A program made the translations under genes and the position numbers. A model generated the notes under the pieces. The model saw only the letters and a list, made by a program, of their open reading frames with translations. It did not search any database and was not told where the DNA came from. 64,000 nucleotides of DNA from an uncultured Planctomycetales bacterium (lineage in GTDB: Bacteria; Omnitrophota; Gorgyraeia; Aquiviventales; Aquiviventaceae): positions 41,654-105,653 of the forward strand of contig CAYJTP010000001.1 of assembly GCA_964373175.1 (NCBI GenBank). Direction: 5' to 3'. Shown one piece after another: positions 10,427 through 54,416 of the stretch (position 1 is its first letter; the number at the start of each line of letters is the position of its first letter).

Positions 10427-10434
10427 CGCTGATG

Positions 10435-20679: not shown

Positions 20680-20681
20680 CC

Positions 20682-22510: not shown

Positions 22511-22530
22511 GAACGCGCTTCTCCTTTTTT

Positions 22531-36004: not shown

Positions 36005-36646
36005 CTAAGTCGGCCATGTGACAAAGTTGCGCAGAAGTTTCAGACCCGCCATCTGGCTTTTCTCTGGATGGAATTGCACAGCCCACAGATTCCGGTCATG
36101 GAGGGCGACAGCGACCGGTCCACCATAGTTGCAGGTTGCGATCACGAACTCCGGGCGGTCACTCACAAAGTGATAACTGTGTGCGAAGTACAGGACCGGT
36201 TCCGGGCCTAAACCCTGAAAGAGCCAACTCTCGGTTGTGGGGTAGACCGTATTCCATCCCATATGCGGGACACGCAACTGTCGGCTGTTATTCAACGGTC
36301 TAACCCGGCCGGGGAGCCAGCGGAGCCCCTCATGAAAGCCGTGTTCGTATCCCTCATGGGCAAGGATCTGCATGCCCAGGCAGATTCCAAGAAACGGTTT
36401 TCCCTTTTGTCGAACCTCCTCATCCAGGACATCAATCCACCCCCCAGACTTCAAGTTCTTCATGCATTCCCCAAACGCCCCGACCCCGGGTAGCACAATC
36501 CGATCGGCTGCTTCGAGATCCTCAGGCCGGTCCATCACGGTGACCTGCGCACCCACGGTCTCCAAGGCCTTTGCGACAGAACGGAGGTTCCCGGTCCCGG
36601 CATTAATGACCGCCACACTGACCCTGGAAGATGAGCGGGGATTCAT
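36005..36646 (-). CDS. HisH-like class-I glutamine amidotransferase subunit homolog (WbuX-like)
   Basis: [14 protein letters not shown], catalytic GICLGMQ (Cys), and HFHPEKS (His/Glu). Start at the ATG overlapping the upstream TGA (ATGA). Confidence 0.8.
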
Positions 36647-37803
36647 TCGCGCGGCTGAGTCCGATCCCAAAGCGGTTGGTCCCAAAGAGCCGTTCCCCGC
36701 TCCGCGTTGGATGGATCGTGCTGGTAGGGGGCGACCGCATGGCCTAAGGCGATCTTCATGAACTCCTCTTCCGTAATCCCGACGGCCTTTAAGAAAAGAT
36801 CGAGGCTGGCCGGACGTTTGCCGTCGTACGCCGCCTCAAGCCGGAGCGCTTCCTCCCGTGAGGTCATCTTCCCTTCCCGCAGGTCTTTACTCACCAGATG
36901 GGCCGTCCGTCCAAACCCGCGCTTGATGAACTTCAGATAATCCCGCACCCCCTGCATGAAGCACTCGATCTTTTCATACCCGTATTCCGGCGGGACCCCC
37001 TCCACCTGTTCTTCCTTCCATCCAAGCTCTCGTTTGATGATCTCAGCTTGCGCCTTGGTCTCCCAGGGGATGTAGCTCCCCAAACAGATGGAGCGGTAAT
37101 TCAGCGCTCGTAATTCCTCGATCGGCGGGTACGCAAAGGGCTCCAGGTCCCGCATCGTGATCCCTTTCCCCAGCATCCCCAGCATATCCTCGGCGGTGAT
37201 TCCCAGGTTGACGAACCGGTTAAAGCGACGCTCGTCTACTTCTTCCTCTTCCTGATACGTGTAGTAGCTCGTATACTCAGCGCTGGGCTCTCCCCAGATG
37301 ACCAAGGGGACTTTGAACTTCACCGCAATGTGCATCGGATAGGCGAAGATCCCGGTATGGCAGTGCCAGCAGAAGTCCCCCTTGCGGATCAGCGCCTCCA
37401 GCATGAGCCGTCGGACAACCTGCCAGTTTGGACGAAACTTCAAGTAGTCGACCCCCAACGTCTTCATGGTCCGCTCAGTATTCGCCAGCACGGTTGGACG
37501 CATAAAGCCGTGATCGAAGGTGACCACCAGCGGCTTGAGATGGTAGCGCACCACCACGGTGTAGAGGGTAAACGTGCTGTCCTTGCCACCAGAAAACGGC
37601 ACAAGACAGTCATAAGGGTGCTTGTCGCGGTAGTGATCGAGGATCGCGATCAGCTCCTTCTCCTTCTGCTGCCAATCGATGTGCTTCTGTTTGTACTCAA
37701 TCTGGCGGCAGACGTTGCAAACGCCCTCCCCATCAAACACGATCGTCTCCTGGGTTTCCGGCAGCACACAACGGCTGCACCGTTTGAGCTCGGTCATCGG
37801 CAT
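36643..37803 (-). CDS. N-acetyl sugar amidotransferase, PP-loop ATP pyrophosphatase family (PseA/WbuZ-like)
   Basis: 386 aa. N-terminal Cys4 (CSRCVLP...CNVC), then PP-loop LVPFSGGKDST. This family pairs with HisH/HisF-like proteins for acetamidino-sugar formation. Confidence 0.8.
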   Translation of the reverse strand: MPMTELKRCSRCVLPETQETIVFDGEGVCNVCRQIEYKQKHIDWQQKEKELIAILDHYRDKHPYDCLVPFSGGKDSTFTLYTVVVRYHLKPLVVTFDHGFMRPTVLANTERTMKTLGVDYLKFRPNWQVVRRLMLEALIRKGDFCWHCHTGIFAYPMHIAVKFKVPLVIWGEPSAEYTSYYTYQEEEEVDERRFNRFVNLGITAEDMLGMLGKGITMRDLEPFAYPPIEELRALNYRSICLGSYIPWETKAQAEIIKRELGWKEEQVEGVPPEYGYEKIECFMQGVRDYLKFIKRGFGRTAHLVSKDLREGKMTSREEALRLEAAYDGKRPASLDLFLKAVGITEEEFMKIALGHAVAPYQHDPSNAERGTALWDQPLWDRTQPRE

Positions 37804-41014: not shown

Positions 41015-42323
41015 TGGACGCTCGGCTCCCTCCATCGTTTGGAATCAGTTGGACGGCCACCCTTCTGCCATCGGGATAGACCCACTCGTAAGGAACGAAG
41101 AAGGGTGCGGCGCTCCGGGCCTTGATATCCGCCTGTTCACCCCTCAAACCAAAATCGGCCAGGGGGCCCACGACATGAAATGCTGCGACCTCTTGCGATT
41201 CGAGCAAGGTACGCTTGCTGTTCGCCTGCCGAACACACATCTTCACCGTGTAGAATTGGGGGAGCAGGGGAACAGCGCGGAAACGACAACCGATCACGTC
41301 GTCCCCCTCCATGGCATTCAGAAGCTGTCCATCGAGAGTCATGTTCGCAGCAAAGATTTCACCGAATCCGCTGTTAATCGAGATCCAGACGTAGGGTTTC
41401 TCCACCCTCTGCCGCGCAAAGATGTGCACGGCAATATCGATGTCGTCTCCCGGATGAAAGATCGTCGTTGGCTGACCCTTCGCGTTCCTCAACACGACCC
41501 GCCTCACTTGGATGACTCCCAGGCCTTGGGTCGCGAGTGAACCTTCGGTGACAGCGGAAAGATACGCCGCCACCGTCTCCTCCGGGGAGCCGACGTCCCG
41601 CAGTTGTCCGCCATCCAGCCAGATCGTCCGATCACAGAGACTCTCGATGGCCCCCATGTTGTGGCTGACGAAGAGGACGGTCCGACCCTCGCTGGCGACG
41701 TTGCCCATCCTTCCCAGACACTTCTTCTGGAACGCCGCGTCTCCTACAGCCAGCACTTCATCAACCAAGAGGATCTCCGGCTCCAAGTGGGCGGCGACCG
41801 CGAAAGCCAGTCGCACGTACATGCCGCTCGAGTAATGCTTCACCGGGGTATCCAGGAACCTCTCCACCTCGGAAAAGGCGACAATCGCATCGAATTTGCG
41901 CGTGATCTCCGCTGTTCTCATCCCCAAGATGGCGCCGTTCAAGAACACGTTCTCCCGACCCGTCAATTCTGGGTGGAACCCAGTCCCCACCTCCAACAAC
42001 GACCCCACTCGCCCCCGGACCGCTGCGAATCCCTCCGTGGGTTCTGTGATGCGGGAGAGGAGTTTCAGCAACGTGGTCTTGCCTGCTCCGTTGCGGCCGA
42101 TCACCCCCATCACCTCGCCCGGCCTGACCTCGAAGGAGACATCCTTCAGGGCCCAGATCATCCCACTGTCCGAGGCTCGGGAACAGGAAGGCGATCTTCT
42201 CAAGCGTCGAAAGGGAGCGTTCCAGGCCTCCGTCAAGGTGTCTCGAAGCGTGCGGTAGCGCTCCGGCTGACCGATGCGGTAGCGCTTGCTGAGATTCTTG
42301 ACGTCGATGGCGACATGGGTCAT
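41004..42323 (-). CDS. wzt: ABC transporter ATP-binding protein Wzt (O-polysaccharide/teichoic-type exporter) with C-terminal carbohydrate-binding-like extension
   Basis: 439 aa. Walker A GRNGAGKTT, signature YSSGMYVRLAF, Walker B LLVDE, then a ~180-aa extra C-terminal beta-rich domain. Confidence 0.85.
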   Translation of the reverse strand: MTHVAIDVKNLSKRYRIGQPERYRTLRDTLTEAWNAPFRRLRRSPSCSRASDSGMIWALKDVSFEVRPGEVMGVIGRNGAGKTTLLKLLSRITEPTEGFAAVRGRVGSLLEVGTGFHPELTGRENVFLNGAILGMRTAEITRKFDAIVAFSEVERFLDTPVKHYSSGMYVRLAFAVAAHLEPEILLVDEVLAVGDAAFQKKCLGRMGNVASEGRTVLFVSHNMGAIESLCDRTIWLDGGQLRDVGSPEETVAAYLSAVTEGSLATQGLGVIQVRRVVLRNAKGQPTTIFHPGDDIDIAVHIFARQRVEKPYVWISINSGFGEIFAANMTLDGQLLNAMEGDDVIGCRFRAVPLLPQFYTVKMCVRQANSKRTLLESQEVAAFHVVGPLADFGLRGEQADIKARSAAPFFVPYEWVYPDGRRVAVQLIPNDGGSRASNGA

Positions 42324-42326
42324 GGC

Positions 42327-43214
42327 CTACACCACATCAGCAAACGTCTTCTCCATGCGACGAAAGTACACGACCCCACCTGCGAGGAGCACGGCCACCG
42401 CGAACGCCGATACGAGAACCAGTGGTCCAGGGCTTCCCGTCTTGCCCAGCAGGGCCCAACGAAATCCTTCCACGACACCGGCCATCGGATTCAGCCCATA
42501 CAGAATGCGCCAGGATTCCGGAACGAGACTGCTTGGATACGCGATCGGCGTGGCAAACAGCCAGACCTGGGCCAGAAACGGAATCGTATAGCGGACGTCC
42601 CGGTACTTCACATTCATCGCCGACAGCCAGAGACCCACGGAGAGAGCCGTGGCAATGGCCAATCCGATGAACAGGGGCGTCAACCAGATCGCCGCTGTAG
42701 GAACGATCCCGTAATAGAGCATCATGCCGATCAAGACCACGAAGGCAACGCCAAAATCCACCAACCCGGCCAGAACCGCAGCGAGGGGGATGATCAGGCG
42801 CGGAAAATAGATCTTCTTGATCAGGTGTTGGTTGGCGATCAGGCTGTTTCCCGACTCCGTGAGCGCATGGGCAAAGAGCTGCCACGGGACCAGGGCCGCG
42901 TACGCGAAAATCGGGTACGGGATTCCATCAGATGGCACCTTGGCCAATCGACCAAAAAAGATGCTGAAGACGACCATCGTGAGAAACGGCTGCAGGATGG
43001 CCCACGCCGCTCCGAGCGCCGTCTGTTTATAGCGCACCTTGATATCCCGCCAGATCAGGAAATACAACAACTCGCGGTATTCCCAGAGCTCCTTCAGCTG
43101 GAGGGAGACGAAGCCCTTGGTCGGCTGAATCACCACGACGGGGACCGGCACCGATGGCACGGAAAGGAGATCCGCCTCCGGCAACGGGTGTGCAATGTCC
43201 GTGATGTGGGACAT
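42327..43214 (-). CDS. wzm: ABC-2 type transporter permease Wzm
   Basis: 295 aa, 6 TM helices, ABC2_membrane pattern (LWEYRELLYFLIWRDIKVRYKQTALG). Confidence 0.85.
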   Translation of the reverse strand: MSHITDIAHPLPEADLLSVPSVPVPVVVIQPTKGFVSLQLKELWEYRELLYFLIWRDIKVRYKQTALGAAWAILQPFLTMVVFSIFFGRLAKVPSDGIPYPIFAYAALVPWQLFAHALTESGNSLIANQHLIKKIYFPRLIIPLAAVLAGLVDFGVAFVVLIGMMLYYGIVPTAAIWLTPLFIGLAIATALSVGLWLSAMNVKYRDVRYTIPFLAQVWLFATPIAYPSSLVPESWRILYGLNPMAGVVEGFRWALLGKTGSPGPLVLVSAFAVAVLLAGGVVYFRRMEKTFADVV

Positions 43215-44078
43215 CTACCGTGGTGGGCTCTTCGACCGCCGATTCGATCCAAGGGGCAACAGCGGTTTCTCGTCTACTCGGTTCAGACGATACCGTATGG
43301 CCTGGCTCACATACTGCCGAAACCGAATATACCACTGCTTCAGGTCAGCAGGAGCGCGATCCCCGTAGTTCAGCTGTTGGACGGAAGGCTGGGTGTGATC
43401 GATTCCCACCCCTCCTTCCGTGGTCACGGTATAGAGCAGCGACATCATGGCGCTGCCATCACAGCGTCCGAAACAGGCGTACATGGTGGGGGAGGCTACC
43501 CCAAGCAGGCGATCCTCTAGAGCCAGCCAATAGGTCCCAAACGGGGCGATCTCTGCGCGACCGGCCTGGACCACGTGACCTCGAGGGTCGAAGATTTCAT
43601 ACTGATAAGACGCCACGCGCGCATAGTCGTTCTTCGTACTGATATTCATCAGGACGAGACCGCAGGATTGGACGGTCGAATCGACAAAGTGTACGGAAAA
43701 GCCGTGGTAGCGATGGGGTCTCCCTGAATGGTTGATCGAGGAGGGAGGGGTATACACCACATGGGTAAATCCCCCGCCTCTGAGATAGTAGTGATACCGG
43801 TCTTTCTTGTAGGGCCGGTCGCTCAGGAGGATGGTTTCAACCAAGCCCTTCTGTCCGTCTCTGATGGAGGGTTGCAAGAACGCGTGATCCAGTTCAATGG
43901 AGGCAACACCCTGGAGAGGCTCCCCGTCATTCCACACGTGTTCCTTGAAGACCCGACCCTGCTCATCACGAGCCCGAAGAAGGACCATGTATCGCTGCCC
44001 TTCATCACACCGCAAGACGGTTCTCATCCCCTCATGGATCTGGAAGTTGAATGGGAGCCAATCCTTGGAAATTTCCAT
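43215..44078 (-). CDS. hypothetical protein, no recognisable family
   Basis: 287 aa, soluble, no motifs recognised. Tightly coupled (1-nt gap) to wzm. Confidence 0.5.
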   Translation of the reverse strand: MEISKDWLPFNFQIHEGMRTVLRCDEGQRYMVLLRARDEQGRVFKEHVWNDGEPLQGVASIELDHAFLQPSIRDGQKGLVETILLSDRPYKKDRYHYYLRGGGFTHVVYTPPSSINHSGRPHRYHGFSVHFVDSTVQSCGLVLMNISTKNDYARVASYQYEIFDPRGHVVQAGRAEIAPFGTYWLALEDRLLGVASPTMYACFGRCDGSAMMSLLYTVTTEGGVGIDHTQPSVQQLNYGDRAPADLKQWYIRFRQYVSQAIRYRLNRVDEKPLLPLGSNRRSKSPPR

Positions 44079-44080
44079 CC

Positions 44081-44881
44081 TTAGAGGTGGTGGAGATTAA
44101 AATCGTCTGTCGTCTGGGTCAGGAGCCACCCTTTCCCCTTCGGACCTCGGACGAAGTACAGGTAGCGCGACGACGTCTTGAATTCCACCTCAAACAGCTC
44201 GCCCAGGTCGACCCAGAGACTGGGAACGAACGCGACGTCTTGGGTCACGTACCTCCATGGGGCTGACCCTTCTTTCAGGCCGAACGTATAGGTCAACCGT
44301 GTTGGCCTGTGCCGGTACGCATCCCAAGGGGCACACACGATGGCGGTCACGCGCGCTCCGTCCTTGGGCACCCAAAAGATCCGTTCCCGCGCATAGTTAT
44401 TGCGCGAGGCACTGGAGTGCACACAATCAAGCGTCCGCCGGATACGCCTGCTCTGATAACATGCGTAAAAGATGGGTGCCAGCCGGTGATGGTCCACGCA
44501 AAAACCTGCTGGATACCCCTCACGCTCCGTCCAGGCAAAACACACACCGCGGAGATCCGACTTGTTCAGCAGGGGTTCGAGCGACAGGCACTGGCTCTGA
44601 TGGTAGGGGAGGCGGACCCGAATCAGGTGGGCCGAACCCTTATCGAGGACCATGGCGTGAAACAGCATGGGTTCCCGAAATGTCTCATCGCAGACTGCAT
44701 GGCAGTAGGTGCATAACAGATGGGTGTCAAACCCATCGGCACACAACACGGGGAGACAGGAGCTGCCTCGGGCCACGTACCGACTCACCGCCCCAAAGAG
44801 ATCGCTTCCCAGTGATTCGACCTGGATTCGATCCGCGTCGTTGAGCTCCGTTGATCGCTGCATCGAGATGGTGGTCATCTT
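44081..44881 (-). CDS. hypothetical protein (Cys/His-rich), no recognisable family
   Basis: Start at MTTISMQRS, 1 nt after the upstream stop. Contains CxxC pairs (LLCTYCHAVCDETF). The track ORF extends 46 codons further. Confidence 0.45.
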   Translation of the reverse strand, partial: KMTTISMQRSTELNDADRIQVESLGSDLFGAVSRYVARGSSCLPVLCADGFDTHLLCTYCHAVCDETFREPMLFHAMVLDKGSAHLIRVRLPYHQSQCLSLEPLLNKSDLRGVCFAWTEREGYPAGFCVDHHRLAPIFYACYQSRRIRRTLDCVHSSASRNNYARERIFWVPKDGARVTAIVCAPWDAYRHRPTRLTYTFGLKEGSAPWRYVTQDVAFVPSLWVDLGELFEVEFKTSSRYLYFVRGPKGKGWLLTQTTDDFNLHHL

Positions 44882-45840
44882 TTCACGGCACCTCTGCTGA
44901 ACGCTTTTGCCCACGCGACACACGCCTTCGCGCGTTGGGGCCCGAGAACCCAATCGAGGCTCCTTCGTGCCCTGTGCTTCAACGTCGAACTGTAGAAATA
45001 GGTGATCTGATACCTCCAAAAAACCAGCCGCAGAGCTCTGGCTTTGGCCACAGCATGGTTCGAGCCCTGCAGGTTCAGTGCAGGTCTTTCGACCGGAGGG
45101 GCGGCCTTCGCCAACACCCGTAAGCCTCTTCCTTCATCCCCCACAACACAAGAAGAAAATCCAACCTGTCCCAGCAGGGACAAAAACGATGGGCGTGTGA
45201 AGAGCCGTAAATGCTGGGCCCCGAGGAACTCGCCCAGGTGGTGGCGAGGCTTCCAGGCATTGGGGACTTCAAGATACAACCGTCCGTCCGGTCTCAAGAG
45301 AGTCTTCACCCGCGTCAGAAAGGCGCAGGGGTCAGAGACATGCTCCAACACCCGCAAGGCGGCCACCAGATCAAATCTCCCTGGAGGCAGGGACGCCTCC
45401 TCGAAAGTCCCTCGCCGGATATCCAACCCGTACGCCCGTTGCCCAAACCGGGCAAAGGCGGAGGGCTCGATGCCGCACGTCTCCCATCCCAGCCGATGAA
45501 ATCTCAACAGGAAGGAACCCTCGGAGCAACCAATGTCCAGCACCCTCCCCCTCTGCCTGAGATGGGGAGCCGCCCAGTGAAAATCTTCCTCGGCCTGACG
45601 CCCCTTCCACCACAGGTGCTCCTCACTTGGGGTGTCTTCCGCCCGCAACGTTTCGTAGAGTCGTGTTAACTCCCCAGGCTCCAGTTGCGGCCGAGAGTAC
45701 ACCAATCCGCAGGTCTGACACATCACCTTCACTACGCGGGCCCGTTCCAGCCCCAATCGCTGGAGGTACGCATCCCGGCGCAGCACGTAGACCGGCACCG
45801 CCGCCCAGGAACCACACACAAGACACGGGACGTCCTTCAT
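44875..45840 (-). CDS. SAM-dependent methyltransferase with N-terminal Cys4 zinc-binding domain (Methyltransf_13-like)
   Basis: CLVCGS...CQTCGLVYSRP ribbon; VLDIGCSEGSFLL motif I. Start at the ATG in an ATGA overlap. Confidence 0.75.
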   Translation of the reverse strand: MKDVPCLVCGSWAAVPVYVLRRDAYLQRLGLERARVVKVMCQTCGLVYSRPQLEPGELTRLYETLRAEDTPSEEHLWWKGRQAEEDFHWAAPHLRQRGRVLDIGCSEGSFLLRFHRLGWETCGIEPSAFARFGQRAYGLDIRRGTFEEASLPPGRFDLVAALRVLEHVSDPCAFLTRVKTLLRPDGRLYLEVPNAWKPRHHLGEFLGAQHLRLFTRPSFLSLLGQVGFSSCVVGDEGRGLRVLAKAAPPVERPALNLQGSNHAVAKARALRLVFWRYQITYFYSSTLKHRARRSLDWVLGPQRAKACVAWAKAFSRGAVKR

Positions 45841-46541
45841 CGGCTGTATTCTCCTGAGCCACACAATTGTAGGAGAGCCTGCGCGAGCCTCAATCCATCC
45901 TCGTCATGGAGATCGACCTGGCTACTCACATCCCGGACTGGAACTAACCCGATTCGATCTCCAAGCCGTCTACCAGATCGAACGATGTCGGCTCGAATGG
46001 CGGTCGCCATCCCCGCCAACTCCTTATAGGTAGGTTGCACCTGATGACGCGTATGATCTCCCTCCTCAGGGTGGAGCTGCTCGAGGCTGTTTTCCGAAAA
46101 CCGCCAGAAGCGATGGCGCTCCTCCCGAGCGGCAAAGACCGTATCCAATCCTTCTGTCTGAAGCACCTCGACGACATCGTCGATCAGCCCTGGTGGCCGG
46201 ATCGGATGCGTCACCTCGAGCAAGACCACAATATCCACCGGGTAAGAGTCCTCTTGCTCGAGCCACTGGAGGCAATGTTGGAGGACCTGAATCATCGGCA
46301 CCCCTGCAGCCGCGAGGTGGGGTGGTCGGAAAAAGGGGACCTCCGTCCCGTAACCCCTGGCCACCTCCGCGACCACGGCGCTATCCGTAGAGACGAGAAT
46401 CCGGTCCAGACATGTCGCCTGACGTGCGGCCTCAATCGTGTAGGTGAGCACCGGTTTTCCACACAGCAGGGACTCTGGTGTCATCTGGGCCTCCGGGTCA
46501 CTGCCCCGGAGCGGGATGATCGCTACCGTGTTCAGATGCAT
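45837..46541 (-). CDS. NeuA-family cytidylyltransferase (CMP-ulosonic acid synthetase-like), divergent
   Basis: VAIIPLRGS...GKPVLTYTIEAARQ...ILVSTDS...EVPFFRP follows the CMP-NeuAc synthetase pattern but lacks the GSKG loop. Confidence 0.65.
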   Translation of the reverse strand: MHLNTVAIIPLRGSDPEAQMTPESLLCGKPVLTYTIEAARQATCLDRILVSTDSAVVAEVARGYGTEVPFFRPPHLAAAGVPMIQVLQHCLQWLEQEDSYPVDIVVLLEVTHPIRPPGLIDDVVEVLQTEGLDTVFAAREERHRFWRFSENSLEQLHPEEGDHTRHQVQPTYKELAGMATAIRADIVRSGRRLGDRIGLVPVRDVSSQVDLHDEDGLRLAQALLQLCGSGEYSR

Positions 46542-47920
46542 GATCGCCCTTCCAGCCATCGTGCGAGAAATGCCAGCGTGCGATCAACCGCCCCGCTCTC
46601 CTGTTGGATCAGGCGAGCCCCGGCAGTCCGAATCGCCTGAAGTGGAGCGTGGCCGGTCAGAACGTCAACCGCTCGGCTCGCCAGAGTCATGGGTGAATCC
46701 ACCTCAAGCCCTGGCCAAGCCTCCAACAACTGCGTAGTGGCGGTTCGCCAAAGATTCATATGGGGGCCAAAGAGGGGTGGCACCCCGTGCGCTAATGGCT
46801 CTAGGGGGTTATGGCCCCCTCTCCGTTCATTGATTGGGACAAGACTGGACCCAATAACGGCCACATCGGCCGCACCATAGATCGTCCGGAGCTCCCCAAA
46901 CGTATCCACTACTAACGCGTCGTACCGCCCCAACTCTGGCGTAGGATGTTGGGCCACCGCGGTTCGCGTCATGACCCTGAAGCCATGTTCCCTGACCCGT
47001 CCCACCATTGCGGGAACGTCGTGAAGCCAGCGTGGCGCGATGATCAACCGGCTGCTCGGAAGGCTCGCCCGGATCAGGCTGAAGGCCTCAAGCATGGTTC
47101 CAATTTCTCCTGGAGGCAGGCTCCCAGCAATCATGACGCGATCCTCTTCTCGAAGGCCGAGGCTACCCCGAAGCGCTTGACGCTCCGCTGGAGAGAGTTG
47201 GAGATGGCTCAGATCCCCTTCCAATTTCCCTGTGACGGCCAACCGATCGGTCGGCACCCCCAGCGAACGAAAGGCGTCGTAATCGGCTTCGCTTTGGACC
47301 GCGATGGCATCGAGCGTGCGGTGGACGCCCAAGGCGAGCGAACGTCGCAAACACGGGTTCGCCACGTGCACATTCCGAGTAAGCACGGCGTTCACCAGCA
47401 CCGTTGTCACCCCTCGCCGCTTCGCATGCTTGAGGAGCGTTGGGAAATAGGCATTCGCCACAAACACCAACGCCTTAGGATTCAACCGGCGGACCACGCG
47501 CGAGACTGGAAGTGAGGTATCCCAAGGTGGGAATGCCACCCGCCCTGGACCATACCACTGGCGGAGCAGCCCGTGTGCATCGTACGAATCGGTGGAGAAA
47601 TAACACGGGTCTCCTCCCGCTTCCAATTGGCGAATCAGGGACTGCGCCATGATCACCTCACCGCCAGAATTCATATGGATCCACAGCGGTTTGGTCCCAT
47701 CATACTGTTCGAGCTCTGCCGGCAACCACCCCCACTGATCCCAAAACCGACGGACCATCAGATCGTGCACAGCGCGACGAGGGTGCAGCAGCACGCGCTT
47801 CGTCAAGGTAATTGGGAAATACGCATACGCCAATGCTGCATAGGGCATCTGATAGCGAGCCCACGTGGTCCAGCGCTCCTGGGCGCTGCGGAACTCACCG
47901 GTCGAGGGATTCCCCATCAC
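46532..47920 (-). CDS. 3-deoxy-D-manno-octulosonic-acid transferase-like glycosyltransferase (GT30, KdtA/WaaA family)
   Basis: 462 aa. N-terminal LWIHMNSGGEV (WaaA HxxSxGE-like) and a C-terminal GT-B domain (VVDTFGELRTIYGAADVAVIGSSL). Confidence 0.7.
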   Translation of the reverse strand: MMGNPSTGEFRSAQERWTTWARYQMPYAALAYAYFPITLTKRVLLHPRRAVHDLMVRRFWDQWGWLPAELEQYDGTKPLWIHMNSGGEVIMAQSLIRQLEAGGDPCYFSTDSYDAHGLLRQWYGPGRVAFPPWDTSLPVSRVVRRLNPKALVFVANAYFPTLLKHAKRRGVTTVLVNAVLTRNVHVANPCLRRSLALGVHRTLDAIAVQSEADYDAFRSLGVPTDRLAVTGKLEGDLSHLQLSPAERQALRGSLGLREEDRVMIAGSLPPGEIGTMLEAFSLIRASLPSSRLIIAPRWLHDVPAMVGRVREHGFRVMTRTAVAQHPTPELGRYDALVVDTFGELRTIYGAADVAVIGSSLVPINERRGGHNPLEPLAHGVPPLFGPHMNLWRTATTQLLEAWPGLEVDSPMTLASRAVDVLTGHAPLQAIRTAGARLIQQESGAVDRTLAFLARWLEGRSCI

Positions 47921-49698
47921 GTCCGCAAGATGTATTCGACCAACCGGAACGGAAAGTCATCCTTCACGTGCAGGAGTTCAAGCCTAGCCCGTTCAAACAT
48001 CGATAACCAGCGCGCCGTCGTGGTTGGCAAGCCCTGCCACGTCAGGGGATGGATGATGTACTGGTAAAACAGCGGATGGATGCGGTCCGGAAACGGCAGT
48101 GCCTTAACCTCTTCATCCGACAGGCGGTTGAATTCCCCGACAAAGATATACCGCCCGGGGAACTGCCGCTTGAGCCCCGCAAAGAGCTGGACGACCGGCT
48201 CTTCGCCATCTCGCAGGAACTCATGGAAGGACATGATGCCGTTGAAGGCACCAACCTCCTTGACCTCGCTGGCAAACGTCTCTGGTCGGGTGAAATCGCC
48301 CTTGACCAGCCGAATGCGGTCAGTCAATCCGGCCTCTGCTACACGGCGCCGGGCCTCCTCAAGCGCCTCCTCTGAGATGTCGATCCCGATACCCCGAAGA
48401 GCCGGATCCAACCGACAGAAGGCAATGAGCGTTTCGCCAGATCCGCAGCCGAGATCAGCGAACGTCCGCACACCCCGCTTGGTCAGCTCTGACACGACCC
48501 AGGGATAGTTTGATTTGCCCGTGTAGTAACTGCCGCGGGCCAGCCAATCCCCTCGGCGGACGAAACCCACGCCGTAGCGCTTTTCCTCGCGTAGTGCGGG
48601 CACGAGTTCGTAGAGCAGACACGCATAGGCGCCGACCGCTCCAAAGGACATGGCCAGCACGGGATCGGTGAAGAGCCACTCGCCGCGGTCGGTGAGGGCA
48701 AATCGGTCCCCTTCTTTCTGCAGCACGCGGTCGGCAAAGGCGAGGAAGTGCAGCACGCCATCCAAGAGGTACGTGTTGAGTCCACATTCCGCGGCCAATT
48801 CTTTGACGGTCTTGGGACCGCTGCGGCGCAGCACCTCGAAGACACCGGTCTCGTGGAGAGCAAACAGGATAAAGGCCCTTGCGTACCCATTCCGAATGTT
48901 CTGAGACCACGTTTTCACATCGTCCCCAAGCCAACCCTCTTTCAGATCAGTGCCGCCGGCGCCATTGCCAGACAGTAGCGGGGCAGCGGGTGCCTCCGGA
49001 TAACGCAACAGCTGTTCCGCCAGCCAGAAATCCAAGGGGGTATGGATATCGATTGACGTGCGAAAATCATTCGTTTCCACAATGTCCACGCGCGAGCCCA
49101 CACGCTGGCCTGCTCGGATGAGCGACGCTCTGGTGGCGCAGGCCACGCCGGTATCCTCCCGGTAGAGGTACGCCTTGCGGCTCTGCCGGGAGGTATAGGT
49201 CGCTAATTCTGGCGCAAGCCGCTGGAAACCTTCCGGCGTCCGATGCCAGTAGTTTTTGTGCGTCTTGTACCCTGAGAAGACGGTTTCCAACTCGGGATGA
49301 GCCGCAAGCCGATGGACGCACTCCCGGATTATGTCCGGCGTCCGGAACAGGTCCGTCGTCTGCAGGTACACGACGATGTCAAACGTGATTCCCCGCAGTT
49401 GTTCGTACGTGACGAGGGCGTGCTGGAGCATGGGCTCGGCAGGTACAGAGTCCTCAGCGAGCTCGCGCGGACGAAGAAACGGGACCTCAGCTCCAGCGTC
49501 GCGGGCGATGCGGGCGACACGCTCATCCTCGGTGCTCACGAGCACGACATCGCACACCCCGGAGACCTTCGCGTGCTCGATGGTATGGACTAGGAGGGGT
49601 TTGCCGCCGATCGGCAGCAGGTTCTTACCCGGCAAGCCCTTTGAACCGGCCCGTGCCCCGATGATCGCGATTGTCCTTGGCAGCGCGGCTGGCATCAC
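47917..49698 (-). CDS. fusion: NeuA-family cytidylyltransferase + class I SAM O-methyltransferase (with dimerisation/wHTH-like linker)
   Basis: 593 aa. IAIIGARAGSKGLPGKNLLPIGGKPLLVHTIEHA...VPFLRP (CMP-sugar synthetase). C-terminal FADLGCGSGETL motif I, preceded by a winged-helix-like segment as in plant-type O-MTs. Confidence 0.75.
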   Translation of the reverse strand: MMPAALPRTIAIIGARAGSKGLPGKNLLPIGGKPLLVHTIEHAKVSGVCDVVLVSTEDERVARIARDAGAEVPFLRPRELAEDSVPAEPMLQHALVTYEQLRGITFDIVVYLQTTDLFRTPDIIRECVHRLAAHPELETVFSGYKTHKNYWHRTPEGFQRLAPELATYTSRQSRKAYLYREDTGVACATRASLIRAGQRVGSRVDIVETNDFRTSIDIHTPLDFWLAEQLLRYPEAPAAPLLSGNGAGGTDLKEGWLGDDVKTWSQNIRNGYARAFILFALHETGVFEVLRRSGPKTVKELAAECGLNTYLLDGVLHFLAFADRVLQKEGDRFALTDRGEWLFTDPVLAMSFGAVGAYACLLYELVPALREEKRYGVGFVRRGDWLARGSYYTGKSNYPWVVSELTKRGVRTFADLGCGSGETLIAFCRLDPALRGIGIDISEEALEEARRRVAEAGLTDRIRLVKGDFTRPETFASEVKEVGAFNGIMSFHEFLRDGEEPVVQLFAGLKRQFPGRYIFVGEFNRLSDEEVKALPFPDRIHPLFYQYIIHPLTWQGLPTTTARWLSMFERARLELLHVKDDFPFRLVEYILRT

Positions 49699-51356
49699 CC
49701 CTCCAGGGAACTCACGGACGCAGCGGTGGGGACGTGGGGTCGCTCATGGATAAGCTCGATGACGCGCGCCACACGCTGTGCCCGCCGCTCGTCACGGCCT
49801 TGGTGGATCCCGTGATAGTGGTACACGCTGGCGAGCGGCGTGTACACGATCTGGTGGCCCTCCGCCAGCACCTTCTTTGCCCAATCTCGATCTTCAACAC
49901 CGTTGAGCTGCTCGTCGAACGGGATTCGTTGCCACACGGCCTTGCAGATCATCGAGTTCGCGTTATGGAAGAAGTAGTCCTGCCCATGTTGCATGCGCCG
50001 CTCTGCTCCAAATGTCGTCCATAAGTCCCGTTTATCAAAATGACTCGTATCGGGCATCGGCTCTTGTCGGCCATAGGCAGCCGCCACAAATGGGAGTCGG
50101 CCATAGCCCGTCGCCCGTTCGCATGCGAAGCCCTCGAGCCACCGGTCGTGGACCGGGATGCAGTGGGCCGACAGGTTGACCACCCATGGGCAGTGCGCGG
50201 CGTCAATGCCCCGATTGAGGGCGCGGCCGAAACTGAACTCATCATCACGCATGGTGAGGACGCGGCACTCGAACTGGCGCGCGACCTCTACCGACTCATC
50301 CGACGAGTCGTTGTCCACGACGATGATCTCCTTCGGCGGCCGCTGCTGGTTGAGGAGGGCCCACAGCGAGCGACGCAGCCATCCGGCTTCGTTCTTGGTC
50401 CGAATGACCACGGAAATCTCCAGTGGCAACCCCGAACTCCTCACAGTCCACGGAACCACCATCCCGAAGGTCATGGGCTCGCCGGGCTCGCGGTCATACA
50501 GCAACTGCGCGCCCTCCAGGCGAGCCGTCATGGCAGGCGTGAAGCCTTTCAGCTTAGGCACCATCTCAACGTCGCTCGAGGCCAAACGACTGCCGGCTCG
50601 TAGGGACCGTCGGGCAACTAGGCTTGGCGCAAACGCCAGCGGCGATTCGCCCTGGGGAACCGCAGCCAGCTGTGCTGCTCCTTGCTGAAACGTGGAAACC
50701 AGCGACTCGTGTTCCCGCACGTAGGTGACCAGCCGCGCGAACTCATGTGGATAGAGGCTTCCCTGGTGCTCAGGTCCTCCAAGGCTTCGGTTCAAGGTCA
50801 ATCCCTTCAAAATCGTCTCGGCTCCGGCCAATGCCCCGTTCAGGGCTCGCCACGGCTCTGGAAACTCATCAGAATAGCCCACGCCCCATCCGAGCTCACG
50901 AACCTGTTGTCTGAGTCTGAACCACTCCGACAGCCGCTCGCCGCGGTTCATGACGATGACGACCAGATGGACTAACCGCTCGTCAACCGGCCCCAGGTCG
51001 AGGTCAACTGTAGCATTGTTGTCGATGAGCAGCAGCATCGGCTTCTGGCAGGTTCGAAGCGCCAGGAGGGACTGGAAGCCCTGAAGGTCTCTGGGACGGA
51101 GGAGATAGCCTGCCGCATCACGGAGTAGCGGCTGATGCAGATCGTCGGAGCTCGAGATTTCGAGGTAGGGATCAAGGTCACAGGCCCTCGCGCTCTGGCA
51201 TAGCTGCTGTGCCACATGGTTCGAAACCCATGGTCGCCGTGGGATGACCACACCAGAAACCTTGCACTCCACAGCCCACTCGATGAGTCGTAGTCCTCGT
51301 TCAGGCGCCTGCTGCTCAATCATCAGTTCAGCGAGGAGTTGCCGCGGTGTGCTCAT
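49695..51356 (-). CDS. fusion: degenerate NeuB-like (TIM-barrel) domain + GT2 glycosyltransferase
   Basis: C-terminal ISVVIRTKNEAGWLRRSLWALLNQQ...IIVVDNDSSDES is GT2. The N-terminal ~300 aa has NeuB-like spacing (GWGVGYSDEF versus NeuB IGYSDHT) but lacks the His. Start at the ATG in an ATGA overlap (MSTPRQL). Confidence 0.6.
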   Translation of the reverse strand: MSTPRQLLAELMIEQQAPERGLRLIEWAVECKVSGVVIPRRPWVSNHVAQQLCQSARACDLDPYLEISSSDDLHQPLLRDAAGYLLRPRDLQGFQSLLALRTCQKPMLLLIDNNATVDLDLGPVDERLVHLVVIVMNRGERLSEWFRLRQQVRELGWGVGYSDEFPEPWRALNGALAGAETILKGLTLNRSLGGPEHQGSLYPHEFARLVTYVREHESLVSTFQQGAAQLAAVPQGESPLAFAPSLVARRSLRAGSRLASSDVEMVPKLKGFTPAMTARLEGAQLLYDREPGEPMTFGMVVPWTVRSSGLPLEISVVIRTKNEAGWLRRSLWALLNQQRPPKEIIVVDNDSSDESVEVARQFECRVLTMRDDEFSFGRALNRGIDAAHCPWVVNLSAHCIPVHDRWLEGFACERATGYGRLPFVAAAYGRQEPMPDTSHFDKRDLWTTFGAERRMQHGQDYFFHNANSMICKAVWQRIPFDEQLNGVEDRDWAKKVLAEGHQIVYTPLASVYHYHGIHQGRDERRAQRVARVIELIHERPHVPTAASVSSLEG

Positions 51357-52483
51357 CGATCCCACTCGGTCGCCATCGCACAGAGCACCCGTTCGTGCGT
51401 GGTGGAATGATCCAGGCCTAACTGACGAAGCCATGGCCGGCAGACGAAACGCGTGAAGGCCTCAGCGGCCTGCGCGAGGTTCATCATCCGCCCGTTCAAC
51501 GTCGGATGCCCGCTCCATCGGGCATGGCGGAGGAACACCGTCTCCAAGGGACTGTAGATGATGTCGTAGCAGACAGTGGTACGAGGCAACCGACTGCAGC
51601 TCACCAGCGAGACCTCCTGATTACGCTGGATGTCTCCGACGGACTTCCAATACCAGTCCTCACGGAACACATCCTCTGCTCCCGGGGTGCCAGCAAGGAC
51701 TTCAGGATGGGCCGGCCCAAGCGCGGAATATGGCTCCAAGCAAGTCCACCGACCGTCCCGCAACTTTCGGATACCCCCCTGTCCCTTTACCGTCGCGTTG
51801 ATGACCAGATCCACTTGAGGCAGGTGGTGGACGATCATTCCTTCATCGATTGCGGTCAACCGTCCGGACCGCGTCCCTGCTAGACGCTCCACTAGATGCT
51901 GCGCCTGGGGTTGCGTTCGATTCGCAATGATCAGCTCGCCCTGCAGCATCTGGTCCCAGAGATAGAAGGCCAGCGCTTGAGCCGCACCCCCTGCTCCCAG
52001 TAACAGCACACGCGCACGGGAGAGATCTGAGAAGAGGGGCTGGCTGCCGCCAGCAGCCGGCGAAGTCAAGGCGCGCAGCCCGCCCAGCCCATCGGTGTTG
52101 TAGCCTACAAGCCGCCCATCTGCTCCCCGGGCGATGACGTTGACGGCGCCGATACGTTCAGCCAGTAGGTCGAGCTCGTCCAGCAAAGGGATCACGGCCA
52201 CCTTGTAGGGCACTGTCACGCTGCCGCCCAAGAAGGCGTCACTGCACCGCAGTAGCTGGATGACCTGAGACAACTGATCCTGCGAGACGTCGAAGGGAAC
52301 GTAGACCGCTTCAAGGCCAAGCGCGGCAAATGCCGCGTTCCATAGGCGTGGGCTCTTCGCATACGTCGAGGGCGTATCGCCCAGGATCGCGGCGATGCGC
52401 TTGCCCTGCAGTGCCGCCACGTCAAGCGGGTTGGTCACCAGCCGCTGGAGTTCCTCAAGCCACGTGTCCTGGGTGGTCGTCAT
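51353..52483 (-). CDS. shikimate 5-dehydrogenase (AroE) family oxidoreductase homolog
   Basis: 376 aa. N-terminal substrate-binding pattern (GDTPSTYAKSPRLWNAAF, NVTVPYK) and the glycine-rich NAD(P) site VLLLGAGGAAQA. Confidence 0.7.
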   Translation of the reverse strand: MTTTQDTWLEELQRLVTNPLDVAALQGKRIAAILGDTPSTYAKSPRLWNAAFAALGLEAVYVPFDVSQDQLSQVIQLLRCSDAFLGGSVTVPYKVAVIPLLDELDLLAERIGAVNVIARGADGRLVGYNTDGLGGLRALTSPAAGGSQPLFSDLSRARVLLLGAGGAAQALAFYLWDQMLQGELIIANRTQPQAQHLVERLAGTRSGRLTAIDEGMIVHHLPQVDLVINATVKGQGGIRKLRDGRWTCLEPYSALGPAHPEVLAGTPGAEDVFREDWYWKSVGDIQRNQEVSLVSCSRLPRTTVCYDIIYSPLETVFLRHARWSGHPTLNGRMMNLAQAAEAFTRFVCRPWLRQLGLDHSTTHERVLCAMATEWDR

Positions 52484-53325
52484 GCAACCCTCACCAGCCC
52501 AGCCGTCAGCCTCCGTCCAACAGCGGGAGCCATCGTTTCGAGCTGCTGCATGAGCTGCCCAAACGCCCCGTAGTCTAACGCCTGCAGGGGATCCACGGCT
52601 GCCTGCTCCGGTGTTGGATGGACGTCAATCAAGATCCCATCGGCACCAATCGCCAGGGCCGCGCGCGCCACGGGGGCGACATACGGCCGTCGAAACGTTG
52701 CGTGACTCGGATCAACCAAGATGGGGAGGTGCGTGTACTCTTGCGCCGCGGGAACCACCTGGAGGTCCACGATGAAGCGCGACGTAGGCGCATGGGTATG
52801 AGGCGCGACGATGCCGCGCTCGCACAAAACAACCTGTGAATTGCCGCCAGCGAGGAGATACTCAGCGGCCCCGAGCCAGTCGCGCAAGCTGGCTCCAAAG
52901 TGGCGCTTGAGGAGAACGGGTTTGCCTATTTTCGAAACGGCTTCAAGGAGCGGAACGTTCTGCATGTTGCGCGAGCCGATCTGCAGCATGTCGGCATAGG
53001 TGGCCACCACTTCCACCACCCGCACATCCATCACTTCCGTGACGACCGGTAACCCTGCGGCGTCCCCGGCTTCGCGCAGGTACCGCAGGCCTTCTTCACG
53101 CAATTCAAACATTGTGGTGTTCCGATACGGAAATGTGAGCGGCTTGAACGCCCCGCCACGCAACATCTGCGCCCCAAGCTCCTTGACGCGGTGGGCAATC
53201 TCACGGATCTGCGCGCGACTCTCGACCACACAAGGGCCAGCAATCACCGTGAAGGTCTCAGCGCCTATCGCGTGACCGCCAACCGTCACGATCGTCTTGT
53301 GGGTTGGGGTTCGCCGGGCTGCCAA
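52480..53325 (-). CDS. DAHP-synthase-I-beta / Kdo8P-synthase family aldolase, divergent active-site motif; start uncertain
   Basis: KTIVTVGGHAIGAETFTVIAGPCVVES...LRGGAFKPLTFPY (canonical KPRTSPY)...PILVDPSH. The track ORF (to 53517) would overlap the upstream gene by 154 nt; TTG at 53325 is provisionally chosen. Confidence 0.6.
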   Translation of the reverse strand: MAARRTPTHKTIVTVGGHAIGAETFTVIAGPCVVESRAQIREIAHRVKELGAQMLRGGAFKPLTFPYRNTTMFELREEGLRYLREAGDAAGLPVVTEVMDVRVVEVVATYADMLQIGSRNMQNVPLLEAVSKIGKPVLLKRHFGASLRDWLGAAEYLLAGGNSQVVLCERGIVAPHTHAPTSRFIVDLQVVPAAQEYTHLPILVDPSHATFRRPYVAPVARAALAIGADGILIDVHPTPEQAAVDPLQALDYGAFGQLMQQLETMAPAVGRRLTAGLVRVA

Positions 53326-53363
53326 GGGAAGGTTGTGCTCTAGGTCACTGGGTGAGATGTCTT

Positions 53364-54416
53364 TCAGTCCGCTCCTCCTCCGCTCCTGGCTAGCGCTGGC
53401 GAGAGGTTGACCACGCGTCGTTGCGCCGACGACTGGTAAATGGCTTCCATGACCTCGGCCAGCCGCACACCGCTGTCCACGACATTGGCTTCCGGGGTCG
53501 TTCGCGTCTCGACGCATCGCAGGAACGACTCCAGTTCGAGCTTCACCTGATCCACCGGGCCTAGGCTCGGCAGGTTCAGCCGAATACCCCCCTCATTGAC
53601 CAACTGCCATACCCCCTCGCGCAACGCATGGTGCACGCGAAACAACTCTACGGTCCCAGTCTCGACATCCGCTTCGATGGTCGCCTTTGACCCACAGACC
53701 ACGAGCTCTTTGGTGGTCTTGGCGTGTGGAACGACACGGTCGTTCCACCGACCAGGCTGAATATAGCCGGACTCCACGTGAGCAAGCACCCCATTGGGGT
53801 AGGTAAGCAGCACGACTGACAGATCTTCCAACCCACGATTCAAGTGATCGCGGGTCACGGCGAAGACCTCTTCAGGCTCGGCCGCCAGCAACCAGTTGAT
53901 CAAGTCAATGAAGTGGATGGCATCCGTGTGCGTGACGCCCACGTCGGTCCGCGCACGCTTAAATCCCATGAACCGTCCTGAGAAATAGCGGAGGCCGCCC
54001 AGCGTCCCCAGCGCGAGCTGCTGCTTGATCCACTGCGCGATCGGATGGACACGATAGTAGTAGCCGACCTGGACGATCCGGCCGGTCTGCGCAACCAGCT
54101 CGCTGAGTTCCCGCGCCTCGGCCGCCGTCATCGTCATTGGCTTCTCAATGAACGTATCCTTGCCAGCGGTCAGTGCCTCACGGCAGAGCATTCCGTGCGT
54201 ATCTGTCGCCGTCACGATGTCCACCACGTCCACTGTTGGCAACCAGGATCGGAAGTCAACACCAACCCGCTCACGCGGAACCCCACATGCCACAGCCCAC
54301 GTGTGCCGCTTGGGCAACACCTCTGCGACCCACAACGACTCTCGGTAGCCAAGCTCAAGCCACGCCTTCAGGTGGACCTGGCCGAAGCCGCCTAACCCAA
54401 TCTGGAGCACGTTCAT
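53364..54416 (-). CDS. Gfo/Idh/MocA-family oxidoreductase
   Basis: MNVLQIGLGGFGQVHL, EKPMT motif, 350 aa. Confidence 0.8.
   Translation of the reverse strand: MNVLQIGLGGFGQVHLKAWLELGYRESLWVAEVLPKRHTWAVACGVPRERVGVDFRSWLPTVDVVDIVTATDTHGMLCREALTAGKDTFIEKPMTMTAAEARELSELVAQTGRIVQVGYYYRVHPIAQWIKQQLALGTLGGLRYFSGRFMGFKRARTDVGVTHTDAIHFIDLINWLLAAEPEEVFAVTRDHLNRGLEDLSVVLLTYPNGVLAHVESGYIQPGRWNDRVVPHAKTTKELVVCGSKATIEADVETGTVELFRVHHALREGVWQLVNEGGIRLNLPSLGPVDQVKLELESFLRCVETRTTPEANVVDSGVRLAEVMEAIYQSSAQRRVVNLSPALARSGGGAD

Follow-up and report, generated by a model that had tools for sequence, protein, structure and literature searches.

The minus strand of the window, by which we mean the whole 64-kb stretch of DNA analyzed here, carries a gene (47917..49698) that joins an N-terminal cytidylyltransferase (CTP_transf_3) to a C-terminal SAM-dependent methyltransferase in one protein, as an earlier note on this DNA had proposed; the features of the fusion and its cassette given below lie on the same strand. 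The ORF listing of the window records it as a single uninterrupted reading frame of 593 codons from GTG 49698, with its stop codon at 47917-47919 and neither a stop nor a frameshift between the domains. Because the junction with the upstream gene reads GGAGGGGTGATG, we re-set the start to ATG 49695, probably the true one, which gives a product of 592 aa. This ATG has a GGAGG ribosome-binding site ahead of it and overlaps the stop codon of the upstream gene, and the fusion's own stop codon is overlapped by a downstream GT30 gene; the fusion gene is translationally coupled to both of its neighbors. The AlphaFold model comprises two well-folded domains and a low-confidence linker (~aa 236-262, about 27 residues, APAAPLLSGNGAGGTDLKEGWLGDDVK; 48913..48993; pLDDT <50), with no further part detected by Pfam or in the model. 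Both domains look intact at the sequence level.

The N-terminal domain (aa 1-235; 48994..49698) is predicted by Pfam, PDB profile, and Foldseek comparisons to adopt the fold of the NeuA/PseF-type CMP-ulosonate synthetases. CTP_transf_3 covers aa 10-148 with 73 bits (cut-off 22.6; E 4e-20), the profile search against the PDB recovers the A. caviae CMP-Pse synthetase (9ftb, 137 bits) and N. meningitidis CSS (119.5 bits), and Foldseek aligns the domain with 9ftc at a TM of 0.82. More broadly, it has in common with the CMP-nonulosonate synthetases (A. caviae CMP-Pse5Ac7Ac synthetase 9FTB/9FTC, the N. meningitidis and V. cholerae CMP-Neu5Ac synthetases, and the CMP-Kdn synthetase PpNeuA) the fold (TM 0.77-0.82) and the P-loop ARxGSKGxxxKN, QxT..R, and RQ motifs, and it is nearer to them (100-137 bits) than to KdsB (~55 bits). 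Its score with the PseF equivalog model (TIGR03584) is 99.1 bits, under the cut-off of 205.7. The P-loop-like motif A15-R-A-G-S-K-G-L-P-G-K-N26 (49621..49656), predicted to bind CTP, aligns with ARQNSKGLPLKN of N. meningitidis CSS; R16, S19, K20, K25, and N26 are invariant in 39 fusions, and the P-loop Arg and two Lys of the N. meningitidis enzyme (R12, K16, K21) are matched by R16, K20, and K25. In contrast to the CMP-nonulosonate synthetases, the D-x-D metal motif of CMP-sialate synthetases (N. meningitidis D209/D211) is incomplete: in the family-profile alignment its place is taken by D217-I-H219 (49042..49050), opposite 'SIDIDTELD' of 1eyr and 'SVDIDVDID' of 1qwj, with the first Asp retained as D217 and the second replaced by an invariant His, H219. 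A search of the PDB with a short fragment around D217-H219 gave no match. Since His can also ligate a metal, the domain may nonetheless be active.

The second difference from these synthetases is the 330-residue C-terminal methyltransferase. Comparable designs exist in bifunctional NeuA (E. coli K1, group B Streptococcus), which combines a CMP-Neu5Ac synthetase with an O-acetyl esterase, and in vertebrate CMAS with its phosphatase-like domain, in both of which a C-terminal domain tailors or senses the same sugar acid. The domain added here is, however, a predicted SAM-dependent C-methyltransferase, whose fold and chemistry are unrelated to those of the esterase and HAD-like domains.

This domain (aa 263-593; 47920..48912) consists of a helical N-subdomain and a Rossmann fold, with class-I SAM methyltransferase models matching at aa ~400-480 (Methyltransf_25, E 5e-11; Pfam). 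The SAM-binding motif I, D415-L-G-C-G-S-G421 (48436..48456), aligns with 'ADLGSGSG' of MppJ and is intact; D415, G417, C418, and G419, along with D440 and D468, are invariant in the 39-fusion alignment. The earlier note had described a plant-type O-methyltransferase architecture. The two-domain organization holds, as the COMT fold is common to the fusion domain in structural comparison and PF08100 scores 24.1 bits, just short of its cut-off of 25.6. The O-methyltransferase assignment does not: PF00891 scores 19.8 bits (cut-off 22.3), and alpha-keto-acid C-methyltransferases head the curated, sequence-profile, and structural comparisons alike, with full-length homology to MppJ, SgvM, MrsA, and ApyS that clearly exceeds that to other COMT-type enzymes. 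Their metal site is also conserved. The predicted first ligand position, H492-E493 (48220..48225), aligns with H243-D244 of MppJ and 'HE' of MrsA, and the second, H550 (48049..48051), with MppJ H295; the corresponding SgvM residues, H244 and H296, were equated with H492 and H550 via the near-identical MppJ numbering rather than by direct alignment. R381 (48556..48558) aligns with R127 of MppJ ('KFYQRDAG' vs family 'kDfvRrgd'), reportedly the carboxylate anchor of that enzyme, and R381 may have the same role. No substitution of H492, E493, H550, or R381 occurs in 39 fusions or in 31 stand-alone members. In SgvM, H244 and H296 bind Zn (PMC10502145), and the metal site of MppJ is unique among COMT-type enzymes (PMC10784701). 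Judged by these comparisons, the C-terminal domain belongs to the metal-dependent alpha-keto-acid C-methyltransferase class.

Within that class of beta-C-methyltransferases, identity to MrsA (2-ketoarginine 3-methyltransferase), MppJ (phenylpyruvate 3-methyltransferase), SgvM (4-methyl-2-oxovalerate methyltransferase), and ApyS (RiPP C-terminal aminopyruvate methyltransferase) is only 21-24%. The scores lie well under the NCBIfam equivalog cut-offs for MrsA (96.7 bits vs 425) and ApyS (110.7 bits vs 400), which places the domain in a separate subfamily and means that its substrate cannot be deduced by orthology. Unlike the four characterized enzymes, it is fused or coupled to a cytidylyltransferase and occurs in surface-glycan loci rather than NRPS or RiPP clusters, and the polyhydroxylated sugar acid predicted as its substrate is used by none of them. 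The same fold, common to many O-methyltransferases, and the weak sub-threshold matches to PF00891 and PF08100 could instead point to an O- or N-methyltransferase that modifies the ulosonic acid, or its CMP derivative, at a hydroxyl or amino group, possibly giving a methylated terminal residue. MppJ has reportedly been engineered into an O-methyltransferase in the course of its structural study, which suggests that the scaffold can switch. Bacteria are also known to contain O-methylated nonulosonic acids as well as CMP-NulO species shifted by +14 Da (SugarBase preprint). Given the conserved metal site and the uniform C-methyltransferase matches, we consider this reading unlikely.

The continuous fusion architecture recurs in a database search in 58 independent 90%-identity clusters (50-98% identity to the window protein), including a 592-aa protein that is 98% identical, and the fusion is therefore not an assembly artefact. 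The loci bearing it span 26-69% GC, and we count the maintenance of at least 50% identity over this range as a sign of selection. About 40 further clusters have the halves as separate neighboring genes. In every one of the 10 independent contexts examined, the methyltransferase is either part of such a fusion or has a CTP_transf_3 gene immediately next to it, with both gene orders occurring, and the stand-alone CTP_transf_3 partners retain the P-loop and SIDIH motif seen in the N-terminal domain of the fusion. Both the pairing and the genomic context are conserved. The matches listed in a contig search with the fusion protein include two distant partial relatives (in a Scalinduaceae and a Desulfobacterales MAG), and a plasmid tblastn search yields a single distant match from Streptomyces (31% identity). 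SDR+MT and ICMT+MT fusions in more distant relatives are independent events and uninformative on this clade.

The methyltransferase domain could in principle be catalytically silent, serving as a dimerization or SAM-sensing regulatory module for the cytidylyltransferase. CMP-sialate synthetases with non-catalytic or accessory C-terminal domains do exist, mammalian CMAS being the precedent. The N-subdomain of COMT-type enzymes moreover mediates dimerization (PMC10502145). However, the SAM- and metal-binding residues are all invariant despite wide divergence, and the domain also occurs as a stand-alone gene that is equally conserved, making such a role very improbable.

Immediately downstream, the translationally coupled GT30 gene (46532..47920) codes for a Kdo-transferase-like glycosyltransferase (Pfam Glycos_transf_N, E 1.6e-26; 184 bits with NCBIfam WaaA models, under the equivalog cut-offs). 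It is kept after the fusion in the related loci L003, L004, and L013, and we propose its product as the user of the CMP-sugar. It is followed by a second CTP_transf_3 paralogue (45837..46559), probably a pseudo-enzyme in view of its degenerate P-loop (Pfam, P-loop comparison), and, at the operon end, by a Methyltransf_23 methyltransferase (44875..45864) that is also present in L003. On the upstream side, the translationally coupled neighbor (49695..51434, probable start ATG 51356) fuses a diverged NeuB-like/SAF region to a GT2 domain; L013 and L015 have separate NeuB+SAF and GT2 genes in this position. Further upstream lie a shikimate-dehydrogenase-like oxidoreductase (51353..52483; AroE 167.6 bits, under the cut-off of 200), which recurs in L003, L006, L016, and the P0260 locus; a type I-beta DAHP-synthase paralogue (52480..53517, its true start probably downstream of 53517); and, paired with the latter, a GFO/IDH/MocA oxidoreductase (53364..54416). 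The DAHP-synthase paralogue scores above the thresholds of NF006421 (352.6 vs 335 bits) and TIGR01361 (311 vs 268) but only 99 bits with the KDO8P synthase model, and it recurs in L003, L006, L011, and L016, in the first three together with the GFO/IDH/MocA gene. DAHP-synthase-type enzymes condense PEP with an aldose phosphate to a 3-deoxy-2-ulosonate phosphate. The NeuB-like part of the upstream ORF is too diverged and a PDB search with it gave no match, and we therefore favor the DAHP-synthase paralogue as the probable supplier of the acid. Every related locus examined has a predicted ulosonic-acid-making enzyme, be it NeuB, a DAHPS-type aldolase, or MR_MLE dehydratase-family proteins. No tRNA genes were found within the 64-kb window.

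The suggestion that methylation provides a chain-termination signal in an ABC-dependent pathway finds no counterpart here. The window has no terminator-like feature, and none of its ~60 ORFs matches ABC_tran or ABC2_membrane or forms a Wzm/Wzt partner; among related loci, L003 has a Wzx-type flippase and L013 Wza/Wzi. The fusion resembles WbdD-type terminators in that it, too, would carry out SAM-dependent methylation in a polysaccharide locus, but it has neither a kinase nor a coiled-coil part, and its methyltransferase is of a different family. Moreover, a C-methyltransferase that requires a free alpha-keto acid could not act on a polymer end. The ORF at 17310-19397 (MT plus kinase-like), considered as a WbdD-like protein, has no sequence match to WbdD structures.

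The CTP_transf_3-type cytidylyltransferases act on 2-keto-3-deoxy sugar acids, in which C3 is a methylene next to the alpha-keto group; to our knowledge, these 3-deoxy-2-ulosonic acids are the only sugars that combine an alpha-keto acid with a beta-methylene. On that basis we propose, with slightly less than an even chance of being right, that the fusion is a bifunctional surface-glycan enzyme combining C3-methylation of a free 3-deoxy-2-ulosonic acid with its CMP activation, ahead of transfer by the GT30 enzyme. What we infer here is the substrate, C3 as the methylated position, the sequence of the steps, and the role of GT30. In this pathway, the DAHP-synthase paralogue would probably make a heptulosonate-type acid, which would be tailored by the GFO and shikimate-dehydrogenase-like oxidoreductases. 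The C-terminal domain would bind the open-chain free acid via its alpha-keto-carboxylate to the metal held by the two His, enolize it, and transfer the SAM methyl group to C3. The NeuA/PseF-type domain would then convert the methylated acid and CTP to CMP-3-C-methyl-ulosonate, from which the coupled GT30 enzyme would add the sugar to a glycan. Methylation would have to precede activation because a CMP-ketoside has no enolizable keto group; of the two timings envisaged in the earlier note, methylation of the acid before transfer is thus compatible with this scheme and that of the activated sugar is not. Branching by enolate C-methylation has a parallel in the TylC3/EvaC/NovU-type NDP-sugar C-methyltransferases, which make branched-chain sugars by placing a methyl on the carbon beside a keto group. 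These belong, however, to another protein family and use nucleotide-activated 4-keto-hexoses, whereas the substrate proposed here is a free, non-activated 2-keto acid.

A genuine alpha-keto-acid C-methyltransferase might alternatively act on a small non-sugar keto acid, as do all its characterized relatives (PMC10502145, PMC11117315), with the fusion reflecting pathway co-regulation rather than consecutive steps. Such an acid could lead to an acyl or aminoacyl group that is afterwards placed on the sugar, or to the three-carbon unit condensed by the synthase. Bacterial nonulosonic acids bear many unusual N-acyl groups (PMC8157484), and some of the loci carry genes whose products could process and attach it: class I/II aminotransferases, FMN-dependent or D-2-hydroxy-acid dehydrogenases, and ATP-grasp or AMP-binding enzymes. 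Yet aminotransferase and ligase genes are not a constant feature of the loci, with none beside the fusion in the window cassette. The cytidylyltransferase is the sole invariant partner (10/10 contexts), and the simplest explanation for the two being fused or translationally coupled, whichever comes first, is that they share a substrate or pass it on. We accordingly regard a small-acid substrate as improbable.

It is possible, though rather less likely than not, that bacteria as different as low-GC marine plankton and high-GC groundwater lineages produce a so far undescribed class of branched keto-sugar acids, the 3-C-methyl-3-deoxy-2-ulosonic acids, by means of a dedicated metal-dependent C-methyltransferase that passes the free acid directly to a fused or coupled CMP-synthetase. 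Some of the '+14 Da' or 'extra-carbon' CMP-linked keto acids in untargeted MS surveys, routinely read as O-methylated or longer-chain, could be explained in this way. A weak lead in this direction comes from Magnetospirillum gryphiswaldense and its 'C10' CMP-ulosonic acids, which are unassigned (SugarBase preprint; PMC8157484). In our own reading, their MS3 pathway ends in an m/z 229.06 core, as does that of C9 acids, and an extra carbon distal to C5 would fit better than a C3 branch.

The database labels now in use ('CMP-legionaminic acid synthase', 'SAM-dependent methyltransferase', '2-ketoarginine methyltransferase') overlook the coupled function of these proteins. Their gene would give MS surveys a concrete marker for keto acids methylated on carbon, which are isobaric with their O-methylated counterparts. 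If the proposal is correct, the fusion would contain the first alpha-keto-acid C-methyltransferase in carbohydrate metabolism, and would extend a small class, biocatalytically valued for asymmetric keto-acid alkylation, to polar sugar substrates. Bacterial surface glycans would also gain a new kind of monosaccharide. Because C3 of an ulosonic acid adjoins the anomeric center, a methyl there would alter how stable the very labile CMP donor is, how glycosyl transfer proceeds chemically, and how readily sialidases, Kdo hydrolases, and phage depolymerases attack the resulting linkage.

The gene for the cytidylyltransferase-methyltransferase fusion lies at 47917-49698 of the window on the minus strand (593 codons), exactly where the earlier note had placed it. 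Its product combines a CTP_transf_3 domain (Pfam, aa 10-148, E 4e-20) with a C-terminal region recognized by class-I SAM methyltransferase models of Pfam at aa ~400-480, for which the O-methyltransferase dimerisation domain PF08100 (24.1 bits vs 25.6) and PF00891 (19.8 bits vs 22.3) remain sub-threshold. Neither of the defects that the earlier note had considered fatal is present: the halves are joined without a stop or frameshift and the SAM motif is unbroken. AlphaFold models two confident domains separated by a disordered linker (aa ~236-262). The start junction (GGAGG, then GTGATG) and the end junction (ACGTGATGG) indicate that the gene is translationally coupled to both neighbors, with the ATG at 49695 as its probable true start. 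In a search of 5.8 billion proteins the full-length architecture recurs in 58 clusters (50-98% identity), alongside about 40 clusters of a stand-alone methyltransferase of 343-372 aa (44-73% identity); the fusions collapse into one representative when clustered at 50% and therefore constitute a single clade. That the fusion is real is practically beyond doubt, and existing annotations of its homologs cover one half only.

By profile scores the N-terminal half (CYTIDYLYLTRANSFERASE) is nearer to the CMP-nonulosonate synthetases (137 bits to both the A. caviae CMP-Pse5Ac7Ac synthetase and the V. cholerae enzyme, 119.5 to that of N. meningitidis, 115 to CMP-Kdn synthetase, and 101 to mouse CMAS) than to KdsB (~55 bits), and Foldseek superimposes it on 9ftc with a TM of 0.82. 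Its P-loop residues are invariant. The D-x-D metal motif of the CMP-sialate synthetases ('SIDIDTELD' in 1eyr) is replaced by D-x-H (D217-I-H219; window 49042-49050, minus strand). This replacement occurs throughout the subfamily, in fused forms, split forms, and a degenerate paralog, with H219 invariant in fused and split forms alike. D-x-H is a signature of the subfamily, and the N-terminal half is a CTP_transf_3 family member with an altered metal motif.

The C-terminal half (METHYLTRANSFERASE) is matched best, among NCBIfam models, by ApyS (110.7 bits) and the 2-ketoarginine methyltransferase MrsA (96.7 bits), both covering its full length with scores far under their equivalog cut-offs. Its nearest solved structures by sequence are MppJ, SgvM (8FTR/8FTV), and MrsA. 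A profile built from 31 family members recovers MrsA (109 bits), MppJ (103), and SgvM (83), with a clear gap before CalO1 (48.8) and other, lower-scoring methyltransferases. MppJ, SgvM, MrsA, and ApyS all methylate the β-carbon of an α-keto acid: in SgvM the bound keto acid is enolised with the aid of a Zn that H244 and H296 coordinate (PMC10502145), ApyS C-methylates a C-terminal aminopyruvate (PMC11117315), and the metal site of MppJ has been described as unique among COMT-type enzymes (PMC10784701). In the fusion, H492 and H550 align with H243 and H295 of MppJ and with the 'HE' and 'H' of MrsA, and R381 with R127 of MppJ. Thus, the plant-type architecture seen in the earlier note stands, but the O-methyltransferase assignment gives way to the metal-dependent C-methyltransferase branch; from residue conservation and profile scores, membership in the α-keto-acid C-methyltransferase class is very probable. 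O- or N-methylation of the sugar is a less likely rival reading. A silent methyltransferase domain is an unlikely one: H492, E493, H550, and the SAM motif are invariant in 39 fusions and also in 31 stand-alone members, whose identity falls as low as 26%.

Across ten independent contexts elsewhere that encode relatives of this methyltransferase (L003/4, L006-8, L009/10, L011/12, L013, L014, L015, L016, L017, and the P0260 contig; GC 26-69%), it is in every case (10/10) fused to or directly abutting a CTP_transf_3 gene, in either order. The partners in L011, L015, and L016 share the P-loop and 'SIDIH' motif of the fusion's N-terminal domain, and by these features form with it a classical split/fused pair. 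Every locus encodes an enzyme making a 2-keto-3-deoxy acid (NeuB+SAF, a DAHPS-type aldolase, and/or an MR_MLE-family protein), and the export genes seen in related loci belong to the Wzx or Wza/Wzi type. As a separate observation, in L016 (region 8656-10813, on a 6.37-Mb long-read contig) insertion of an ISAZ013-type transposase immediately upstream has shortened the homologous methyltransferase to 270 aa, and the DAHPS-shikimate-DH pair is split by a fragment of a DUF772 transposase; this genome's cassette is in decay.

In the window, the operon runs through a GFO oxidoreductase, a DAHP-synthase paralog, a shikimate-DH-like protein, and a diverged NeuB-like+GT2 fusion to the cytidylyltransferase-methyltransferase fusion, which is followed by a GT30 Kdo-transferase-like enzyme, a second CTP_transf_3, and a Methyltransf_23. 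The DAHP-synthase paralog scores as type I-β DAHPS (NCBIfam, 352.6 bits, above the 335 cut-off) against only 99 bits for KDO8P synthase; with the AroE-like dehydrogenase (together 51353-53517, minus strand) it lies in a glycan operon with no dehydroquinate synthase. The trio with GFO is found again in several loci. The duo accompanies the methyltransferase-CTP_transf_3 pair in loci that differ widely in GC, which suggests that two shikimate-pathway enzymes were recruited for making a seven-carbon keto-sugar acid. In the NeuB-like+GT2 fusion (49695-51434, minus strand; start probably 51356), the ~310-aa NeuB-like region matches Pfam NeuB weakly (30 bits over its last third) and has no PDB match at E<=0.01; L013 and L015 carry separate normal NeuB+SAF and 232-aa GT2 genes in its place. 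The second CTP_transf_3 (45837-46559, minus strand; counterparts at L003:13098-13799 and L013:9272-9991) has lost its catalytic P-loop residues (LRGSDPEAQMTPESLL in the window, ARGVDPDSPHGPESLL in L003, IRGDDKEFQNNASLLL in L013; canonical 'ARGGSKGLPxKNxxxL') despite retaining 'VDLHDxDG', and looks like a conserved pseudo-cytidylyltransferase travelling with the fusion and GT30.

Cytidylyltransferases and C-methyltransferases of these families both act on α-keto acids, and 3-deoxy-2-ulosonic acids are the sugars in which a 2-keto-carboxylate and an enolisable C3 methylene occur together. Given this shared chemistry and the obligatory pairing, the two domains are most simply read as acting in turn on a single ulosonic acid. 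The free open-chain acid would undergo metal-assisted enolisation and C3-methylation, the methylated acid would be activated with CMP, and GT30 would perform the transfer; methylation would come first because a CMP-ketoside cannot enolise. The NeuB-like region next to the fusion has diverged too far to match any solved NeuB, so that the DAHPS paralog is the probable source of the acid here. Alternatively, and less probably, the methylated compound could be a small keto acid that later becomes part of a substituent; small keto acids are the type of substrate on which the characterised relatives act. We favor, tentatively and at somewhat short of even confidence for the whole chain, a bifunctional ulosonate C3-methyltransferase/CMP-synthetase.

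The window as a whole is a large glycan island, almost entirely on the minus strand, with four CTP_transf_3 genes, two complete NeuB genes, and numerous methyltransferases. A PseB/PseC/HisH-HisF-like/formyltransferase/GNAT block occupies 33-41 kb, and a WbpA/B/D/E-like set lies at 54-61 kb. A second fusion, of CTP_transf_3 (E 7e-36) with a class-III aminotransferase (E 5e-54), lies at 30096-32093 (minus strand); its components are separate adjoining genes in L016. A module at 21614-26036 (minus strand) comprising a short NeuB without SAF domain, an SDR, a GFO oxidoreductase, a CTP_transf_3, and a xylose-isomerase-like TIM barrel, conserved with an added HAD phosphatase at L013:14251-19134, is probably a separate Kdn-like pathway with phosphorylated intermediates. 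Four ORFs of 386-638 aa without Pfam or NCBIfam matches (41604-43520, plus strand; 36643-37803, 26033-27487, and 19399-20706, minus strand) are candidate polymerase, ligase, or novel transferase genes. In the 695-aa product of 17310-19397 (minus strand) an APH kinase-like domain comes after a methyltransferase, the order seen in WbdD, the chain terminator of ABC-transporter-dependent O-antigen synthesis; that identity was rejected, as WbdD structures gave no phmmer match. None of the window's ORFs matches an ABC-transporter component. The fusion proposed in the earlier note is confirmed, and the interpretation attached to it is supported in part, with chain termination unsupported.

The literature searched contained neither a link between a cytidylyltransferase and a C-methyltransferase nor a description of C-methyl ulosonic acids. 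Untargeted surveys have reported unassigned 'higher-carbon' CMP-linked keto acids in Magnetospirillum; as read here, the fragment data favor a distal extra carbon, and a possible connection to the fusion is a weak lead. The fusion would represent the recruitment, by gene fusion, of a known enzyme class into nucleotide-sugar-acid biosynthesis, and its predicted product would be new.
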